This document shows positions 1 to 9,117 of a DNA stretch of 21,334 nucleotides, in pieces. The stretch spans positions 1 through 21,334 of IMG/VR virus record IMGVR_UViG_2534682338_000003; one strand, written 5' to 3'. This DNA is from a virus (Duplodnaviria > Heunggongvirae > Uroviricota > Caudoviricetes). Position 1 is the first letter of the stretch. Every line of letters begins with the position of its first letter. A program made the position numbers and the translations under genes. The notes under the pieces were generated by a model that ran no database searches, was not told where the DNA came from, and saw only the letters and a program-made list of their open reading frames with translations.

Positions 1-438
1 GGCTGGCTGTATCTGGCAGTGGTCATTGACCTGTGGTCACGTGCCGTTATTGGCTGGTCAATGTCGCCACGCATGACGGCGCAACTGGCCTGCGATGCCC
101 TGCAGATGGCGCTGTGGCGGCGTAAGAGGCCCCGGAACGTTATCGTTCACACGGACCGTGGAGGCCAGTACTGTTCAGCAGATTATCAGGCGCAACTGAA
201 GCGGCATAATCTGCGTGGAAGTATGAGCGCAAAAGGTTGCTGCTACGATAATGCCTGCGTGGAAAGCTTCTTTCATTCGCTGAAAGTGGAATGTATCCAT
301 GGAGAACACTTTATCAGCCGGGAAATAATGCGGGCAACGGTGTTTAATTATATCGAATGTGATTACAATCGGTGGCGGCGGCACAGTTGGTGTGGCGGCC
401 TCAGTCCGGAACAATTTGAAAACAAGAACCTCGCTTAG
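1..438 (+). CDS. insF: IS3 transposase OrfB (DDE integrase core), 5'-truncated by the window edge
   Basis: Translation from base 1 gives [23 protein letters not shown]...[14 protein letters not shown]...[17 protein letters not shown]...[11 protein letters not shown], matching my recollection of the IS3 OrfB C-terminus; the ORF track shows only 19-438 because it starts at the first in-frame GTG. Confidence 0.8.
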
Positions 439-468
439 GCCTGTGTCCATATTACGTGGGTAGGATCA
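1..468 (+). mobile_element. IS3 insertion sequence, 3' portion; the window begins inside the element and its right terminal inverted repeat ends near 468
   Basis: Transposase reading frame is open from base 1; it is followed by GGCCTGTGTCCATATTACGTGGGTAGGATCA at 438-468, which I recognise as the IS3 right end. Confidence 0.8.
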
Positions 469-582
469 GTTCACCTGTACAGCGTTGTGTTAATCATATT
501 TCTGAACCGGATACAGAAATTCCGCCTGGTTTCAGAGGATAAGTGTTGATTTCAGGTCATGAGGTAATTTTAAGGGGGACTT

Positions 583-1038
583 GTGGCAAAAGTTTTTACA
601 CAAGAAGAGCGGGAAAAAATTAAAGGGCAGGTGGTGGAACTCGTGCGCCAGAGCGGTCGTGAGACGTTACGGCAACTGGAAGCTAAAACAGGTGCGACTA
701 GATATCTGATGAGCGTTCTTGCCAGAGAGCTGGTAGCCAGTGGCGATGTATACAACTCCGGCTACGGGTTATTCCCGTCTGAACAGGCGCGTAAGGACTG
801 GCAAAACGCCCGCAAAAAACTCTCGAGGGCAAAGGTGAAGAAACCTGCTGTGGTTGATCCGGACCTTATCTGGTCATTACCTGACGGAGAAATACGTCGC
901 TACGACAGTCGTCTAAACATAATCTGTCGCGAGTGCCGGAAGAGCGAAGTGATGCAACGCATACTGGCGTTTTATCAGGGAAATGTTCAGCATTTTGAAG
1001 TAACGATATTAAAGTGCATTAGTTCAAATGTGAAATGA
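583..1038 (+). CDS. Hypothetical 151-aa protein with a possible N-terminal helix-turn-helix and a C-terminal CxxC
   Basis: ORF-track ORF; GTG start 3 nt after AAGGGGGA (572-579); in-frame TAA at 571-573 bounds it upstream; segment TLRQLEAKTGATRYLMSVLARELVASG looks HTH-like; I do not recognise the family. Confidence 0.5.
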   Translation: MAKVFTQEEREKIKGQVVELVRQSGRETLRQLEAKTGATRYLMSVLARELVASGDVYNSGYGLFPSEQARKDWQNARKKLSRAKVKKPAVVDPDLIWSLPDGEIRRYDSRLNIICRECRKSEVMQRILAFYQGNVQHFEVTILKCISSNVK

Positions 1039-1284
1039 CATTTCTGTTGTATAGGATTAGATTAAAACTGGCATTGTTGCAGCTTTGTACTAGGAGTGAC
1101 CGTTTACACAGACCACGTCCCAGTAGACGCTCTTGACATAATCGTTGAGATGTCCAACTTTCGGAGCTCACCTCATGCCCCAGATGTTTTTTGTTCTCAG
1201 GAGAAAACTATATCGCAGAACTACGAACTAAACTTATGTCATAACTCATGCAAAAAACTCTTCGGCTAAACATTAAAAAAATCT

Positions 1285-1290
1285 TATAAT
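1285..1290 (+). promoter_or_regulatory. Candidate -10 hexamer (TATAAT) upstream of the AIPR gene; no convincing -35
   Basis: Consensus TATAAT at 1285-1290, about 39 nt before the ATG at 1329. Confidence 0.25.
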
Positions 1291-1328
1291 GCGAATCATA
1301 TTTTGTTACATGTTCAGGAGCGCAAAGG

Positions 1329-3104
1329 ATGTCCCAGTACGACAAAGCCACGCAAACAGCAGGTTTAGTACGCATAACTAATCAATTAGAGTCTATATAC
1401 GGAACTTTTATTGATATGAAAGATATTAATTCCGTAGGAGAGCATAGGAAAGAAACTCTAATTACACGCTGTGTAGCTGCGCATGCAATCAGCTTGTATG
1501 GTGATGAACCAGACCCTGAGTTAGCTGCTAATGCTGTCTGCGATGGAAAAGATGATGGCGGGATAGATGCAGTTTATGTTAATAAAAATTCGAGAAAGAT
1601 AGTAATAGTTCAGTCAAAATATATTAAAAATGGCGACGGTTCTATAACCACAAGAGAATTCGGAAGATTCAAAGACGCATGCGCAAAAGTAATAGCCAGC
1701 GACTTTACAACATTTAACGAAAGGTTTTTAAGAAACAAAGACTCCATAATTGAAGCAATCTCAGGATTTACATATAAATGTATATGTGTATTTATATATA
1801 CAGGGGTTCATGAGCCAAGCGAAGAAGTAAAATCAGACATAGAGTTTTGGGAAAAGGTTCAGAATCGGTCTCTATTATTTAAAGATATAGAGAATAGAGA
1901 TGAGTATTCAGTGCTATTCGAGCCGGCAGGTATACAAGTGATAATGGATGGTCTTTCTAATGATCGATCAAAATCTATAAATGTTAGCAATGTTCACCTT
2001 GAAAGTTATGGAGAGATAGCAGAACCTTATAAAGCAATATACGGAACAATATCCGCAAGGATCCTATACGACTGGTGGGAAAAGTACAAGTACTCTCTGT
2101 TCGAGAAAAATATAAGAAGTGTCCTCGGTAATTCATCCATAAACTCTGGGATAAAGAAAACATTAAGTGAAAAGCCGGAGAATTTTTGGTACTATAACAA
2201 TGGGATAACTGCTGTATATAGTGATGTAGAAGAAAGCATGATCAACTTAAGTACAAGCAGGAAGTACGGGCTATTTAGTTTTAAAAGTCTGAGTATAATA
2301 AATGGAGCTCAAACTGTAAGCACTATTGGTGAAGTGTTCAACTCTTTACCCGAAGAAAAAAAAGATCTAATCAAGGTGAGCATTAGATTTATCAGTGCAG
2401 CAAAAGAAGATTTTTTAACCTCTGTCACTAAATTCAACAATACACAAAACAGGGTTACTGGAAGAGATTTCTCATCACAGAGGCCCGAGCAACAAAGAAT
2501 ACAAAGAGAAATAAACTTTATTGGCGGATATAGCTACAAACTACTCAGGCAAGAAGACTCCAGCCAGACAGGTGGTAATACCATTGATATTGATGATGCT
2601 TTAAACGCATTAGTGTGTGCCTCTAAAGATGAAACATTGATATCTTCCTTAAAACTAAATAGAGGACGTTTTTTTGAAAGCTGGGGAGGTCTTTATGAAA
2701 AAGTATTCCCAGCTGAAAATGGTCCTACCGGTTTAGATATAATAAATAAAGTAAATGCTTATAGATTAGCAAATGATATATTGCAAGAAAGTATAGTTAA
2801 ACTACTATCAGTAGATATGGAAAATCAGAAGCAGATTCATCAAATAATGATTCATGGAAATTATGTTTTAATATCCATACTCATGAATAAAATAGAAGTT
2901 TCCTCTGTGGAGAATCACATCTTCTCTTATAGCCGAAACGTTTCACTGGAGGAATGTATAGAGCTGGCTTCTGATACTTATAATCACATACAGGAAGTCT
3001 TCCCCAATAGTTATATAGCAAGATTCTTCCAGAACAGAGAAAAAGTATTAAATATTATTAATCATCTACTAGGTAAAGAGCAGATCATCGAATTGCAAGA
3101 GTAA
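1329..3104 (+). CDS. AIPR-family abortive-infection-type protein (591 aa) with an N-terminal PD-(D/E)xK-like nuclease motif
   Basis: ORF-track ORF; ATG after AGGAGCGCAAAGG; contains IINGAQTVSTIG (the NGxQT motif I associate with the AIPR domain) and upstream GIDAVYV...IVIVQSKY (D...QxK); markedly AT-rich relative to its neighbours. Confidence 0.75.
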   Translation: MSQYDKATQTAGLVRITNQLESIYGTFIDMKDINSVGEHRKETLITRCVAAHAISLYGDEPDPELAANAVCDGKDDGGIDAVYVNKNSRKIVIVQSKYIKNGDGSITTREFGRFKDACAKVIASDFTTFNERFLRNKDSIIEAISGFTYKCICVFIYTGVHEPSEEVKSDIEFWEKVQNRSLLFKDIENRDEYSVLFEPAGIQVIMDGLSNDRSKSINVSNVHLESYGEIAEPYKAIYGTISARILYDWWEKYKYSLFEKNIRSVLGNSSINSGIKKTLSEKPENFWYYNNGITAVYSDVEESMINLSTSRKYGLFSFKSLSIINGAQTVSTIGEVFNSLPEEKKDLIKVSIRFISAAKEDFLTSVTKFNNTQNRVTGRDFSSQRPEQQRIQREINFIGGYSYKLLRQEDSSQTGGNTIDIDDALNALVCASKDETLISSLKLNRGRFFESWGGLYEKVFPAENGPTGLDIINKVNAYRLANDILQESIVKLLSVDMENQKQIHQIMIHGNYVLISILMNKIEVSSVENHIFSYSRNVSLEECIELASDTYNHIQEVFPNSYIARFFQNREKVLNIINHLLGKEQIIELQE

Positions 3105-3108
3105 AAGT

Positions 3109-3132
3109 AAGAGCCACCTGCGGGTGGCTCTT
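3109..3132 (+). terminator. Rho-independent terminator after the AIPR gene
   Basis: AAGAGCCACC-TGCG-GGTGGCTCTT, a perfect 10-bp stem with 4-nt loop beginning 5 nt after the stop codon, followed by a T-rich stretch. Confidence 0.6.
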
Positions 3133-3481
3133 ACTTATTTGACGCTACCATATGCTCGCATTTGCCATAACATATGTTGCGTACGCTCAGAAATACGTGG
3201 AGGGCGTTTCTGGTCTAAAATCGTCAAGACACTCCATCATATATTCAGGAAATTGCTAATAATCGTGTAGGTGAATACTGCTTAAAATTCATATATATGA
3301 AATTGAACCTGTTGGCTTGCGTCGGACTTTGCGTATTAAAAGAAGTGCTGGTGGTGACTAGTGGTTGAGCTCCATTTCCACAGAAAAATCAGAGAAACCA
3401 TACCCAATAGTTGTATTGAATCACGGACGAGACAGCCTCATATTTATCAGGACTGGTGTACGTCCAATACAGGAGGTTGTG

Positions 3482-3571
3482 GTGCTGGTTCTCAAATGTG
3501 CGCTGGCTATTACGGCTGTAATGGCGATTTATTGTCTTGCTATTGTTCTTATGGATCGCCTTTCTGACTGA
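3482..3571 (+). CDS. Candidate 29-aa hydrophobic peptide (possible small membrane protein or type I toxin-like peptide)
   Basis: AGGAGG at 3471-3476, 5 nt before GTG 3482; translation (M)LVLKCALAITAVMAIYCLAIVLMDRLSD is a single predicted transmembrane helix; no homolog recognised. Confidence 0.25.
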   Translation: MLVLKCALAITAVMAIYCLAIVLMDRLSD

Positions 3572-3858
3572 TTTCATATTGGCGAGGTAAAGGTAGTTAA
3601 GTAGAATGGCTGCGGGTGCTTGAGGCTATCTGCCTCGGGCATGAACACCAAAGGCAGATAGAGAAAAGCCCCAGTTAACATTACGCGTCCTGCAAGACGC
3701 TTAACATTAATCTGAGGCCAATTTCATGCTAGACACATGTAGGTTAGCCTCTTACGTGCCGAAAGGCAAGGAGAAGCAGGCTATTGTTAACACCAAGCTG
3801 TAATGTCCCCTTTGAACCATTCTAAAATGTCCCCAGACAATTCTCTGGGGGATTTTTC

Positions 3859-5199
3859 ATGATCAAAGAGACTGTTACGATGAGTCATAAGGAACTCCAC
3901 CGACTTCAGATTATTCAGGAGTCAATTAATCGACATATTACTCAGGAACAAGCTGCGGCACGCATTGGCATTTCTATTCGGCAGGTTAAACGTCTGGTGC
4001 AACGGTATAGAAATGAAGGGCCTTCTGGTCTGGTTTCCCACCGACGTGGAAAGCGTCCTAATAATTCCTTTTCTACTGAATTCAGAGCAACAGTAATTTC
4101 ACTCCTCAAAGGCCGTTACGCTGATTTTGGACCTACGTTTGCGTGCGAAAAATTGCGCGAGATACACGGTTTATCTTTATCCGTTGAAACTCTCAGAAAG
4201 TGGATGATAGAAGAGGGGTTATGGCGTGAACGCCGTCGTAAAATTGCCCGTATATATCAACGCCGCATGCGACGACCATCTTACGGTGAACTGATCCAGA
4301 TTGATGGCTCACCTCATGACTGGTTTGAAAATCGAGGCCCCAGATGTACACTGATCGTTTTCATTGATGATGCCACCAGTGCGTTGATGGCGTTGCGTTT
4401 TGTGCCTGCTGAAACAACCCGGGCTTACATGGAAACCCTCCGGGGTTACCTTAATGATCATGGCGTACCGCTCGCTCTCTACTCTGATAGACACAGTATA
4501 TTCAGGGTAAATAACCCAGAGCGGGAAGGTGAGCTGACCCAGTTCACTCGTGCGATAAAGACACTGGGCATCGAGCCAATCCATGCCAACAGCCCGCAGG
4601 CAAAAGGGCGGGTAGAGCGCGCCAATCAGACACTACAGGACAGGCTGGTCAAAGAAATGCGGCTTCAGAATATCAGTGATATTGAAACAGCAAATGCATG
4701 GTTGCCGACCTTTATTGAAGCCTATAACAACCGGTTCGCTACGTCGCCTCGTACTACTGATAATGCTCATCTTGATGTGCACCATTCTGAAGAGGAACTG
4801 GGTTATATCTTCAGCCTACAGGCGAAGCGCGTTCTGTCTAAAAATCTCACTTTCCAGTACAAAAGCAGTGCGTTTCAGGTACGCAGTGAGAGCCGGGGAT
4901 ATCGACTTAGGCATTCGGTTGTTACTGTATGCGAGAACTTTGACGGTGAAATTAACGTTCTGTATGACGGGAAAGTGCTGGGCTGGGAAAAGTATGTTGA
5001 TGGCCCGGAGCCTATACCACTGGATGATGAAAAGAGTGTCCATGAACGAGTGGATAATGCCCGTATTGATTTACGCTCAAAATACTATGTTAAACCTAAA
5101 GCTGACCATCCCTGGCTTACGCGCCGAACGCAAAGTCATCAGCAAGTTAAGCCCCCGAAGTTACCTAAAAAGAAGCCTGATCCCGATAAAAAAGATTGA
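3859..5199 (+). CDS. DDE transposase, ISNCY/IS481-like (N-terminal HTH plus integrase catalytic core), 446 aa
   Basis: ORF-track ORF; N-terminus HKELHRLQIIQ...ISIRQVKRLVQRY is HTH-like, followed by an rve-type core (LIQIDGS...FIDDATS...SDRHSIF...GRVERANQTLQ); element ends not resolved. Confidence 0.8.
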   Translation: MIKETVTMSHKELHRLQIIQESINRHITQEQAAARIGISIRQVKRLVQRYRNEGPSGLVSHRRGKRPNNSFSTEFRATVISLLKGRYADFGPTFACEKLREIHGLSLSVETLRKWMIEEGLWRERRRKIARIYQRRMRRPSYGELIQIDGSPHDWFENRGPRCTLIVFIDDATSALMALRFVPAETTRAYMETLRGYLNDHGVPLALYSDRHSIFRVNNPEREGELTQFTRAIKTLGIEPIHANSPQAKGRVERANQTLQDRLVKEMRLQNISDIETANAWLPTFIEAYNNRFATSPRTTDNAHLDVHHSEEELGYIFSLQAKRVLSKNLTFQYKSSAFQVRSESRGYRLRHSVVTVCENFDGEINVLYDGKVLGWEKYVDGPEPIPLDDEKSVHERVDNARIDLRSKYYVKPKADHPWLTRRTQSHQQVKPPKLPKKKPDPDKKD

Positions 5200-5635
5200 A
5201 ACCAAGATCGATTCGGTTGAGTGCATATCCATTCATAGGGTAGATTCTTAAGTCGCGTTTCTGGTGTTCATTTTCGGGTGGTTTGTTACTTGTTTTACTG
5301 GGGATATGCCAGAAACGCGCTGAGTCAGTCTGGGCGGTGCGCGTAATGAGGCGTTATGGTAAATAGCCTATGCTAATGTCCGCTAAGAGCAAGAAGCGGA
5401 AGTTGGCAGTTTTGTGGACTGTCCCCACAAAAGTGACTACAGAAATAGTTGCAATTCATAATTGATCATGGGTTGTCAGTTAAACTCGTGGCGATTTAAA
5501 TAGACTAATTGGGAGTGCGTCCATTACTTATATCTTGTAATGTTAACTATCAGAAATGATACAAAGATAATATGTCTTTAAAGAAAAGGCTGATGGCGAA
5601 AAGTGGCCCGATGAGGGCCACAATACGGCTGTCAC

Positions 5636-8067: not shown

Positions 8068-9117
8068 GTGCGGGTATTACTTAGACCTGTTCTGGTGCCT
8101 GAGCTTGGGCTGGTGGTCCTTAAGCCGGGCCGTGAATCCATACAGATATTTCATAATCCTCGAGTGCTGGTGGAACCGGAACCAAAAAGCATGCGTAATC
8201 TGCCATCCGGAGTCGTTCCTGCCGTTCGCCAGCCGCTGGCGGAAGACAAAACATTGCTGCCGTTTTTTAGTAACGAACGGGTGATTCGTGCTGCTGGCGG
8301 CGTTGGCGCATTGTCCGACTGGCTATTACGTCATGTTACATCCTGCCAGTGGCCTAATGGCGATTACCATCACACTGAAACAGTCATTCACCGTTATGGT
8401 ACCGGCGCAATGGTGTTGTGCTGGCACTGCGACAACCAACTGCGTGACCAGACATCGGAATCACTGGAGCTGCTTGCTCAACAAAATCTGACAGCATGGG
8501 TGATTGACGTCATCCGTCACGCAATAAGCGGTACGCAGGAGCGGGAATTATCTTTGGCTGAATTATCCTGGTGGGCGGTCTGCAATCAGGTGGTGGATGC
8601 ACTACCTGAGGCTGTATCGCGTCGTTCGCTGGGATTACCAGCGGAAAAAATCTGCTCGGTGTACCGCGAAAGCGACATCGTACCGGGAGAGCAGACCGCC
8701 ACCAGCATATTGAAACAACGCACAAAAAATCTTGCACCGTTGCCTTACGCCCACCAGCAACAAAAATCACCACAGGAAAAGACGGTGGTAAGCATCACCG
8801 TTGATCCAGAGTCTCCGGAATCTTTCATGAAGCTGCCTAAACGTCGCCGCTGGGTTAAGGAGAAATACACACGTTGGGTTAAGACACAGCCGTGTGCTTG
8901 CTGCGGTATGCCAGCCGACGATCCGCATCATCTGATTGGTCACGGGCAGGGCGGAATGGGAACAAAAGCACATGATCTCTTTGTGTTGCCTTTGTGCAGA
9001 AAGCATCACAACGAGCTGCATACGGATACAGTGGCATTTGAAGATAAGTATGGCTCCCAACTGGAGCTGATATTTCGTTTTATCGATCGCGCGCTGGCAA
9101 TTGGCGTACTGGCGTAA
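8068..9117 (+). CDS. ydfU: YdfU, DUF968 protein with a C-terminal HNH-like Cys/His motif (349 aa)
   Basis: Same frame as ORF-track 8029-9117; I prefer GTG 8068 because GGAGG sits at 8059-8063 and the length then matches the 349 aa I recall; motif CACCGMPADDPHHLIGHG...CRKHHNELH. Confidence 0.75.
   Translation: MRVLLRPVLVPELGLVVLKPGRESIQIFHNPRVLVEPEPKSMRNLPSGVVPAVRQPLAEDKTLLPFFSNERVIRAAGGVGALSDWLLRHVTSCQWPNGDYHHTETVIHRYGTGAMVLCWHCDNQLRDQTSESLELLAQQNLTAWVIDVIRHAISGTQERELSLAELSWWAVCNQVVDALPEAVSRRSLGLPAEKICSVYRESDIVPGEQTATSILKQRTKNLAPLPYAHQQQKSPQEKTVVSITVDPESPESFMKLPKRRRWVKEKYTRWVKTQPCACCGMPADDPHHLIGHGQGGMGTKAHDLFVLPLCRKHHNELHTDTVAFEDKYGSQLELIFRFIDRALAIGVLA

Follow-up and report, generated by a model that had tools for sequence, protein, structure and literature searches.

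What is the small open reading frame that lies upstream of an abortive-infection gene of the AIPR family in this viral DNA, and do the two genes act together? The window, by which we mean the whole stretch of 21,334 nucleotides that was analysed, carries both genes on the plus strand. An earlier note, made from the sequence alone, described the product of the reading frame as an unrecognised protein with a helix-turn-helix-like N-terminus. It proposed that the protein could be a regulator or partner of the AIPR gene, or else a remnant prophage regulator.

A conserved gene in a Qin/Rac-type prophage

The reading frame occupies 583..1038 on the plus strand. It begins with a GTG codon at 583, encodes 151 amino acids and ends with a TGA stop codon at 1036-1038. 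A good Shine-Dalgarno sequence, AAGGGGGA, was read from the sequence at 572-579 on the same strand, 3 nt 5′ of the GTG. An in-frame TAA at 571-573 leaves 9 nt between that stop and the start codon. From the TGA to the start of the AIPR gene at 1329, on the same strand, the spacer is 290 nt (1039-1328). We were thus able to confirm the start codon, length, upstream stop, Shine-Dalgarno sequence and distance to the AIPR gene given in the earlier note.

The start position is kept among 14 sampled alleles, 11 of which use GTG and three ATG. In two near-identical E. coli prophages (L001 and L002), RefSeq has a CDS with these bounds whose product, WP_001151182.1, is identical. The sampled alleles are nearly invariant, with about 91-97% protein identity. 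When dN/dS was computed over codons 1-133 only, values of 0.04-0.09 were obtained against 11 intact alleles, with dS reaching 0.61. Because the reading frame has a Pfam match (DUF977, described below), a RefSeq CDS, a kept start and a low dN/dS, we conclude that it is a genuine gene and that purifying selection on it is strong. We refer to it below as the DUF977 gene.

The end of the gene is peculiar to this allele. Most of the listed relatives are 140-142 amino acids long, as opposed to 151 here. Comparison of the tails of 14 alleles, together with a DNA alignment (A4), placed a deletion of 1-2 nt in a T-run at about 993-996 relative to the 140/141-amino-acid alleles. This deletion shifts the frame, so that residues ~137-151 (991..1035, plus strand) form an allele-specific C-terminal extension read from DNA that is normally non-coding but conserved. 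The AlphaFold2 model gave residues 134-151 a pLDDT below 50.

The window is a Qin/Rac-type lambdoid prophage, and the prophage origin suggested for the reading frame was borne out. Further right, the window encodes ydfU (DUF968), the antiterminator Q, lysis genes, a large terminase of the lambda type and a portal. An uninterrupted relative, L001, lies beside rspB. Its left part carries, in order, an integrase, an excisionase, an exonuclease, dicB, a leftward repressor gene, a rightward dicC/cro-like gene and a ydaT-like gene. These are followed by a replication gene of 321 amino acids, the DUF977 gene, the AIPR gene, hokD, rem, ydfU and Q.

We found that the DUF977 gene lies directly 3′ of the replication gene or genes in every examined locus with an intact left side. 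The same position after the replication gene is seen in E. coli prophages and in the phages Rac-SA53, mEp460_ev081 and Evi. The 321-amino-acid gene is named "phage replication protein O", "Primosomal protein I" or "hypothetical" in the records, and its full-length product gave no Pfam match at E<=1e-3.

In the window the replication gene is interrupted. Positions 1..468 (plus strand) hold the right-hand part of an IS3 element that is cut by the window edge and that RefSeq calls "IS3-like element IS3 family transposase" in L002. Reading across the junction places the end of the element, ...TGGGTAGGATCA, at 457-468. The trinucleotide GTT at 469..471 flanks both IS3 ends when L001 is compared with L002 and the window, and represents a 3-bp target-site duplication. 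The replication gene is left as a remnant of its last 23 codons and stop codon (471..542, plus strand), cut off by IS3. The insertion is thus in the 3′ end of the replication gene, 24 codons before its stop, and 114 nt upstream of the DUF977 start.

As a consequence, more than 1.2 kb of IS sequence now separates the DUF977 gene from its native early-right promoter. Since IS3 lies between the two, any expression here would have to come from read-through or from a promoter borne by the IS. A promoter scan from the IS3 end (468) to the start codon gave no convincing promoter, and the only site returned was a weak 9/12 match at 1035-1063, at the cassette border.

A second element, of the IS1202/ISEsa1 type, starts at 3785 (its first part covers 3785..5199, plus strand), with a transposase ORF at 3859-5199 that has Pfam HTH and rve_3 matches. 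It is inserted where hokD starts in L001, and homology to L001 and to L020 stops at 3784. RefSeq names an ISEsa1-like element in L002 and L024.

Family membership and relation to phage lambda Ren

The statement that no family could be assigned to the protein turned out to be wrong. The product matched the Pfam family DUF977 (PF06163) with 103.1 bits against a cutoff of 22.1 (E 1.7e-29). The match runs from end to end, with protein residues 1-136 aligned to positions 1-134 of the 134 in the model. It also matched PHROG 142, "Ren-like exclusion protein", with an E-value of 2.1e-46. The protein had zero matches among the NCBIfam profiles and zero among the PADLOC models.

[quoted passage not shown] As Pfam, PHROGs and RefSeq all list the gene already, it is not new; our literature search for DUF977 and LygF found no functional study. 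An exhaustive HMMER search of 1.84 billion representatives indicated that the family is narrow. Only 102 clusters were recovered, of which many are fragments; the full-length members have identities as low as about 31-41%.

The family alignment (A1) shows a winged helix at the N-terminus, followed by a conserved G-x-F-P-S-E-Q...W segment and a basic linker that varies; then come a C-terminal motif with strong conservation and a variable tail. The motif reads Y-D-R-x-x-N-x-I-C-x-E-C-R-x-S-x-x-M-Q-R-V-L-A-F-Y in the family. In our protein it spans residues 107-133 (901..981, plus strand) and reads Y-D-x-R-x-N-I-I-C-R-E-C-R-K-S-E-V-M-Q-R-I-L-A-F-Y-Q-G. N112, C118 and R119 are invariant in A1, and Y107, C115, E117, S121, M124, R126 and F130 reach at least 90% conservation. 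Within the family, it is this motif that is conserved most strongly, and not the recognition helix. A zinc site at the CxxC formed by C115 and C118 was considered and dropped, since these are the only two conserved cysteines and lambda Ren lacks the first of them.

We modelled the protein with AlphaFold2. The model has an N-terminal winged helix-turn-helix domain (residues 1-66; 583..780, plus strand) made up of helices at 7-24, 29-36 and 40-53 and wing strands at 57-59 and 62-64. Residues 10-80, which cover the winged helix and one further helix, have pLDDT above 90. The helix-turn-helix-like N-terminus of the earlier note is thus supported, with residues ~7-64 modelled as a winged helix. The linker and the C-terminal helix were modelled with low to moderate confidence, and confidence for the C-terminal half is low.

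The top Foldseek matches were all winged-helix proteins (MarR, GntR, IclR and others). None was significant (E >= 0.027), and the matches span only the generic winged helix of 60-70 residues. Foldseek against the PDB and the viral models in BFVD gave matches of this generic, insignificant kind only and did not recover lambda Ren. A sequence search of solved structures returned nothing below E 0.27. The protein is basic, with a pI of 9.7 overall and 10.1 for the linker.

Lambda Ren (NP_040633) also matches PHROG 142 (E 1.6e-41). It does not reach the threshold of the Pfam DUF977 model. We compared a DUF977 alignment of 23 sequences (A2) with a Ren alignment of 15 sequences (A3) using hhalign. 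The two aligned with a probability of 97% and an E-value of 8.7e-11 over 88 columns, and the aligned region includes the winged helix as well as the C-terminal motif. By BLASTP, the protein aligned with lambda Ren in the C-terminal motif only, where NIICRECRKSEVMQRILAFY pairs with NLVFKECRQSAAMKRVLAVY at 10 of 20 identical positions (E 2e-6). Identity between the two proteins is about 23%.

Because the profile-profile match covers both parts of the proteins, sequence comparison indicates that the DUF977 and lambda Ren families are homologous, if distantly. This alignment comparison makes the link between DUF977 and Ren explicit, at the level of sequence, beyond their grouping in one PHROG.

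The AIPR gene is a neighbour and not a partner

The AIPR-family abortive-infection gene (1329..3104, plus strand) encodes 591 amino acids and was identified by Pfam AIPR (E 4.5e-33), PHROG 1841 (E 7e-103) and the PADLOC AbiU model (E 6.9e-24). Directly after its stop codon is a terminator-like hairpin with a perfect 14-bp stem (3105..3136). The gene lies in a cassette at 1044..3310 (plus strand) that we delimited by homology boundaries and by G+C. Homology to loci with other cargo stops at about 1042-1043 and resumes at 3310/3311. G+C is about 0.52 in the DUF977 gene and drops at the left border to 0.27-0.40 for the cassette. The conserved right flank (3311..3784, plus strand) was defined by blastn against L001, L005, L016 and L020 and corresponds to the region upstream of hokD in uninterrupted prophages.

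The AIPR cassette is the current occupant of a variable cargo slot, which begins about 5 nt after the DUF977 stop and ends before hokD. Among 17 comparison loci we found about a dozen different slot contents. Several are recognised defence systems. L005 has a type I-C retron RT-Toprim (PADLOC 2.7e-221), and L022 has Kiwa KwaA and KwaB (PADLOC 1e-101 and 3e-159) with QueH before them. PD-T7-1 (PADLOC 7e-157) is present in L023 and in phage mEp460_ev081 (L028), and 448 of 450 amino acids are identical between the two copies. QueH, a Dcm methyltransferase and a NgoMIV-type restriction enzyme occupy the slot in L019 and L025.

Other loci carry a SMEK-domain protein (L016), a Sll1717-type ATPase (L021), three hypothetical genes and a DUF4145 protein (L015), a SAM-dependent methyltransferase and a DUF7167 protein (L006), or small hypothetical genes that include a DUF4014 protein (L018). 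A BCCT transporter is found in L017, an alpha/beta hydrolase in L026, and a transcriptional regulator with an acetyltransferase in phage Evi (L027). L024 has an IS directly after the DUF977 gene. The slot of the BL21-type locus L020 is empty, and the deletion there also takes the 3′ end of the DUF977 gene.

Could the DUF977 protein nevertheless serve the AIPR gene as a dedicated regulator of its transcription, or as its partner in a two-gene defence system, as had been proposed? The two genes are on one strand, 290 nt apart, and the DUF977 protein has a winged-helix N-terminus. In addition, the AIPR cassette is joined to the DUF977 gene in 37 of the 38 E. coli genomes that hold most of the cassette. 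However, DNA matching the DUF977 gene is present in 4045 of 5426 complete E. coli genomes, and the cassette (queried as 1048-3300) in only 39 of them. All 39 copies are at least 99% identical, which points to one recent acquisition and not to independent co-occurrence. Across genomes, the two genes were thus not seen to occur together repeatedly and independently.

Where the AIPR cassette is absent, its place is taken by a retron, Kiwa, PD-T7-1, a restriction-modification system, transporters or nothing. None of eight distant AIPR loci from other phyla has a DUF977 neighbour; these relatives, 27-41% identical and found in Bacteroidota and Acidobacteriota MAGs, serve as a negative control but are uninformative on enterobacterial contexts. 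The drop in G+C at the cassette border and the lack of any PADLOC match for the DUF977 protein also argue against a two-gene system, which we consider extremely improbable.

The AIPR gene is therefore a neighbour of the DUF977 gene and not its partner, and the two became adjacent through one recent insertion of a low-G+C cassette. The gene proposed as a regulator or partner instead shows clear homology to a prophage protein and has no AIPR linkage elsewhere. This removes a false lead, and the DUF977 gene should be treated neither as part of an AIPR defence system nor as a new kind of regulator. That the protein is DUF977/Ren-like and no partner of AIPR we hold with high confidence.

Proposed role and comparison with known systems

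The backbone order of these prophages is a leftward repressor gene, a rightward cro/dicC-like gene, a ydaT-like gene, the replication initiator, the DUF977 gene, the cargo slot, hokD, rem, ydfU and Q. The explanation that we favour, with a probability of roughly 60%, is that the DUF977 gene is a conserved, DUF977/Ren-like backbone gene of Qin/Rac-type prophages which closes the replication module and has a Ren-like role. This figure combines our confidence in the classification with that in the mechanism. For the mechanism taken by itself, a Ren-like action of the DUF977 protein is a tentative proposal from sequence, to which we give somewhat less than even odds.

On this proposal the protein would, like lambda Ren, be produced along with the replication proteins once the prophage is induced or a cell infected. 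At the phage replication complex it would then serve as a small accessory factor. The C-terminal motif would mediate protein-protein contacts, and the winged helix might contact DNA. As an outcome, phage replication would be kept from abortion by Rex-type exclusion. The functional assignment rests on distant homology (about 23% identity to lambda Ren). Counting against a Ren-like role, this prophage type has no annotated lambda-P-like loader adjoining the gene. L001, an intact relative, showed no rexAB in its early region.

The same winged helix is open to another explanation, in which the protein is no more than a transcription factor of the phage and has no part in replication or escape from exclusion. 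It might, for instance, control delayed-early or nin-region genes in a MarR-like manner. The winged helix is confidently modelled, its nearest folds are MarR, GntR and IclR regulators, and the protein and its linker are basic. Lambda Ren itself has weak MarR and Crp HTH matches, and the MarR family label is attached to some truncated Ren fragments. However, the structural matches to regulators were insignificant and generic, the dimerisation helices of MarR proteins are absent from the DUF977 protein, and conservation peaks in the C-terminal motif instead of the recognition helix. The protein gave no MarR Pfam match at E<=1 and so does not qualify as MarR-type. We judge a plain transcription factor to be unlikely.

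A further explanation concerns expression in this genome. The gene could be an intact but silent relic in a decaying prophage, cut off from the early-right promoter by IS3. Consistent with this, IS3 interrupts the operon 114 nt upstream of the start, a second IS is present at about 3785, the interval between the IS3 end and the start codon has no promoter-like site, and the C-terminal tail is frameshifted. On the other hand, codons 1-133 are intact, with two non-synonymous changes relative to the closest alleles that lack IS3 (L005 and L006), and IS3 is transcribed in the same direction, which makes read-through possible. We regard silence here as rather improbable, and it is in any case compatible with a function at the level of the family.

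The position of the gene beside the slot suggests two related ideas. In one, the DUF977 protein is a self-immunity factor that, on induction, stops the cargo in the prophage's own slot from aborting the lytic cycle. The gene is always directly upstream of a slot that often holds systems of the abortive-infection type, and there is a parallel in lambda, where Ren shields the phage from its own RexAB. However, the protein hardly varies, whereas the cargos of different strains are unrelated in mechanism, and one small protein is unlikely to neutralise them all. The gene is also kept where the slot cargo is non-defensive. We give this idea little credence.

In the other, which we rate just as poorly, DUF977/Ren-like proteins would be general shields against abortive infection that mask the phage replication complex, the presumed trigger of Rex-type systems. 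If they were such shields, a place at the edge of the hotspot would let an induced prophage replicate despite its own abortive-infection cargo. They would then form a widespread class of anti-defence or self-immunity proteins, carried by some three quarters of E. coli genomes.

For the Ren-like role that we favour, the closest known system is lambda. Lambda Ren protects the phage from the lambda-encoded Rex system, according to the supplement of a preprint (bioRxiv 10.1101/2021.04.19.439022). The same supplement states, citing Toothman & Herskowitz 1980, that heteroimmune lambda lacking ren grows poorly on Rex+ lysogens. It also states that suppressors of the ren-minus defect map to O and P, that O, P and ren are co-expressed from pR, and that Ren contacts RexB in the yeast two-hybrid assay and RexA/RexB in the bacterial two-hybrid assay (bioRxiv 10.1101/2021.04.19.439022, supplement). 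Ren is described there, citing Weigel & Seitz 2006, as going with replication modules that consist of an initiator and a helicase loader. The anti-Rex phenotype is known for lambda Ren only.

Lambda Ren and the DUF977 protein have in common the winged helix and a motif of the form N-x-I/V-x-x-E-C-R-x-S-x-x-M-x-R-V/I-L-A-x-Y. Each gene closes the replication module of its rightward early operon and precedes the nin/Q region; the lambda order is cro, cII, O, P, ren, nin and Q. In contrast to the DUF977 proteins, lambda Ren is 96 amino acids long and lacks the basic linker of about 45 residues, the G-x-F-P-S-E-Q...W segment and Cys115. Lambda ren overlaps P by 4 nt, whereas the DUF977 gene follows its replication gene after a 40-nt gap (542 to 583) and has its own Shine-Dalgarno sequence. 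The terminal overlap and translational coupling of O, P and ren were thus not found for the DUF977 gene. Experiments on Ren would bear on a gene that is present in about 75% of complete E. coli genomes.

The Rac prophage of E. coli K-12 offers a second comparison. There, the replication genes ydaU and ydaV are directly followed by ydaW, whose product, YdaW, is likewise small and has a winged helix. This gene has been reported as a blocker of the retron-Sen2 toxin RcaT (bioRxiv 10.1101/2020.06.22.160242). However, YdaW combines its winged helix with DUF1627 (PF07789), whereas the product of 583..1038 has no DUF1627 match, and BLASTP found no similarity between the two proteins. We therefore rejected YdaW as a DUF977 protein. 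Since YdaW belongs to a different family, its retron-blocker activity cannot be transferred by homology. In some prophages, DUF1627 and DUF977 genes lie side by side.

The slot next to the gene can also be set beside known systems. In the literature that we searched we found no description of this slot for Qin/Rac-type prophages. The DUF977 gene marks its left border and so provides an anchor for mining defence genes carried by prophages. Defence hotspots have been described in P2-like phages and P4-like satellites (Rousset et al. 2022, PMC9122126). Like the slot described here, these are fixed sites between conserved phage genes that hold interchangeable anti-phage systems, AIPR-domain genes and retrons among them. 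Unlike them, the present slot is in lambdoid prophages of the Qin/Rac type, between a ren-like gene and hokD, and it also accepts cargo with no role in defence.

Relatives and 3' end of the AIPR gene

In a species-representative genome collection, we found that the AIPR protein (gene at 1329-3104, + strand) has only distant relatives outside E. coli, sharing 27-41% identity, and that all of these relatives (loci L007-L014) lie in metagenome-assembled genomes (MAGs) of Bacteroidota or Acidobacteriota. This suggests that the source of the low-GC AIPR cassette lies far beyond the enterobacteria. A perfect palindrome with a 14-bp stem, AAGTAAGAGCCACC-CGCA-GGTGGCTCTTACTT, occupies 3105-3136 and begins 1 base past the AIPR stop codon. 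Placed at the 3' end of the gene, it likely terminates transcription in both directions.

The replication module and the IS3 insertion

An IS3 element with its GTT target duplication spans 1-471 and interrupts the prophage replication gene 24 codons ahead of its stop, leaving a 3' remnant at 471-542. The insertion splits the early-right promoter from the DUF977 gene (583-1038, + strand), and the same insertion is found in E. coli strain VG12A2 (L002). In the uninterrupted E. coli relative L001, the replication gene is complete (8109-9071) and encodes a 321-aa protein that records name 'phage replication protein O', 'Primosomal protein I' or 'hypothetical'; Pfam gave no match for this protein at E<=1e-3. 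Prophages of this type have no helicase-loader gene between the replication gene and the DUF977 gene. Prophages that carry a DnaC-like ATP-binding replication gene (L019, L025 and L026, from O157:H7 and NCTC9112) have a DUF1627 gene, YdaW-like with two winged helices, after the replication genes and before the DUF977 gene. Two different small winged-helix proteins are therefore able to close the replication module.

The interval between the DUF977 gene and hokD

The downstream flank of the AIPR cassette ends where an intact IS1202/ISEsa1-like element begins (~3785-5400, transposase ORF 3859-5199), exactly at the position where hokD starts in uninterrupted L001. The L002 copy of this element is interrupted by IS1414, which means that the window derives from a strain other than VG12A2. 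In some E. coli genomes, DUF977 is joined in-frame to a Hok/Gef toxin domain (PF01848), giving a protein of 177 aa (P0010 in the DUF977 family alignment). This fusion probably arose by a deletion spanning an empty slot.

In Qin/Rac-type lambdoid prophages, and in live phages too, the stretch from the DUF977/ren-like gene to hokD is a cargo slot whose content varies (L005, L006 and L015-L028). Here the slot is 1044-3310, flanked by ~990-1043 and 3311-3784. Which cargo is present depends on the strain: AIPR, a type I-C retron, Kiwa (KwaAB), PD-T7-1, a restriction-modification pair (Dcm/NgoMIV), or SMEK, Sll1717 ATPase or DUF4145 proteins; elsewhere the same slot carries non-defence genes or is empty. 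The slot between the DUF977 gene and hokD behaves like a defence hotspot.
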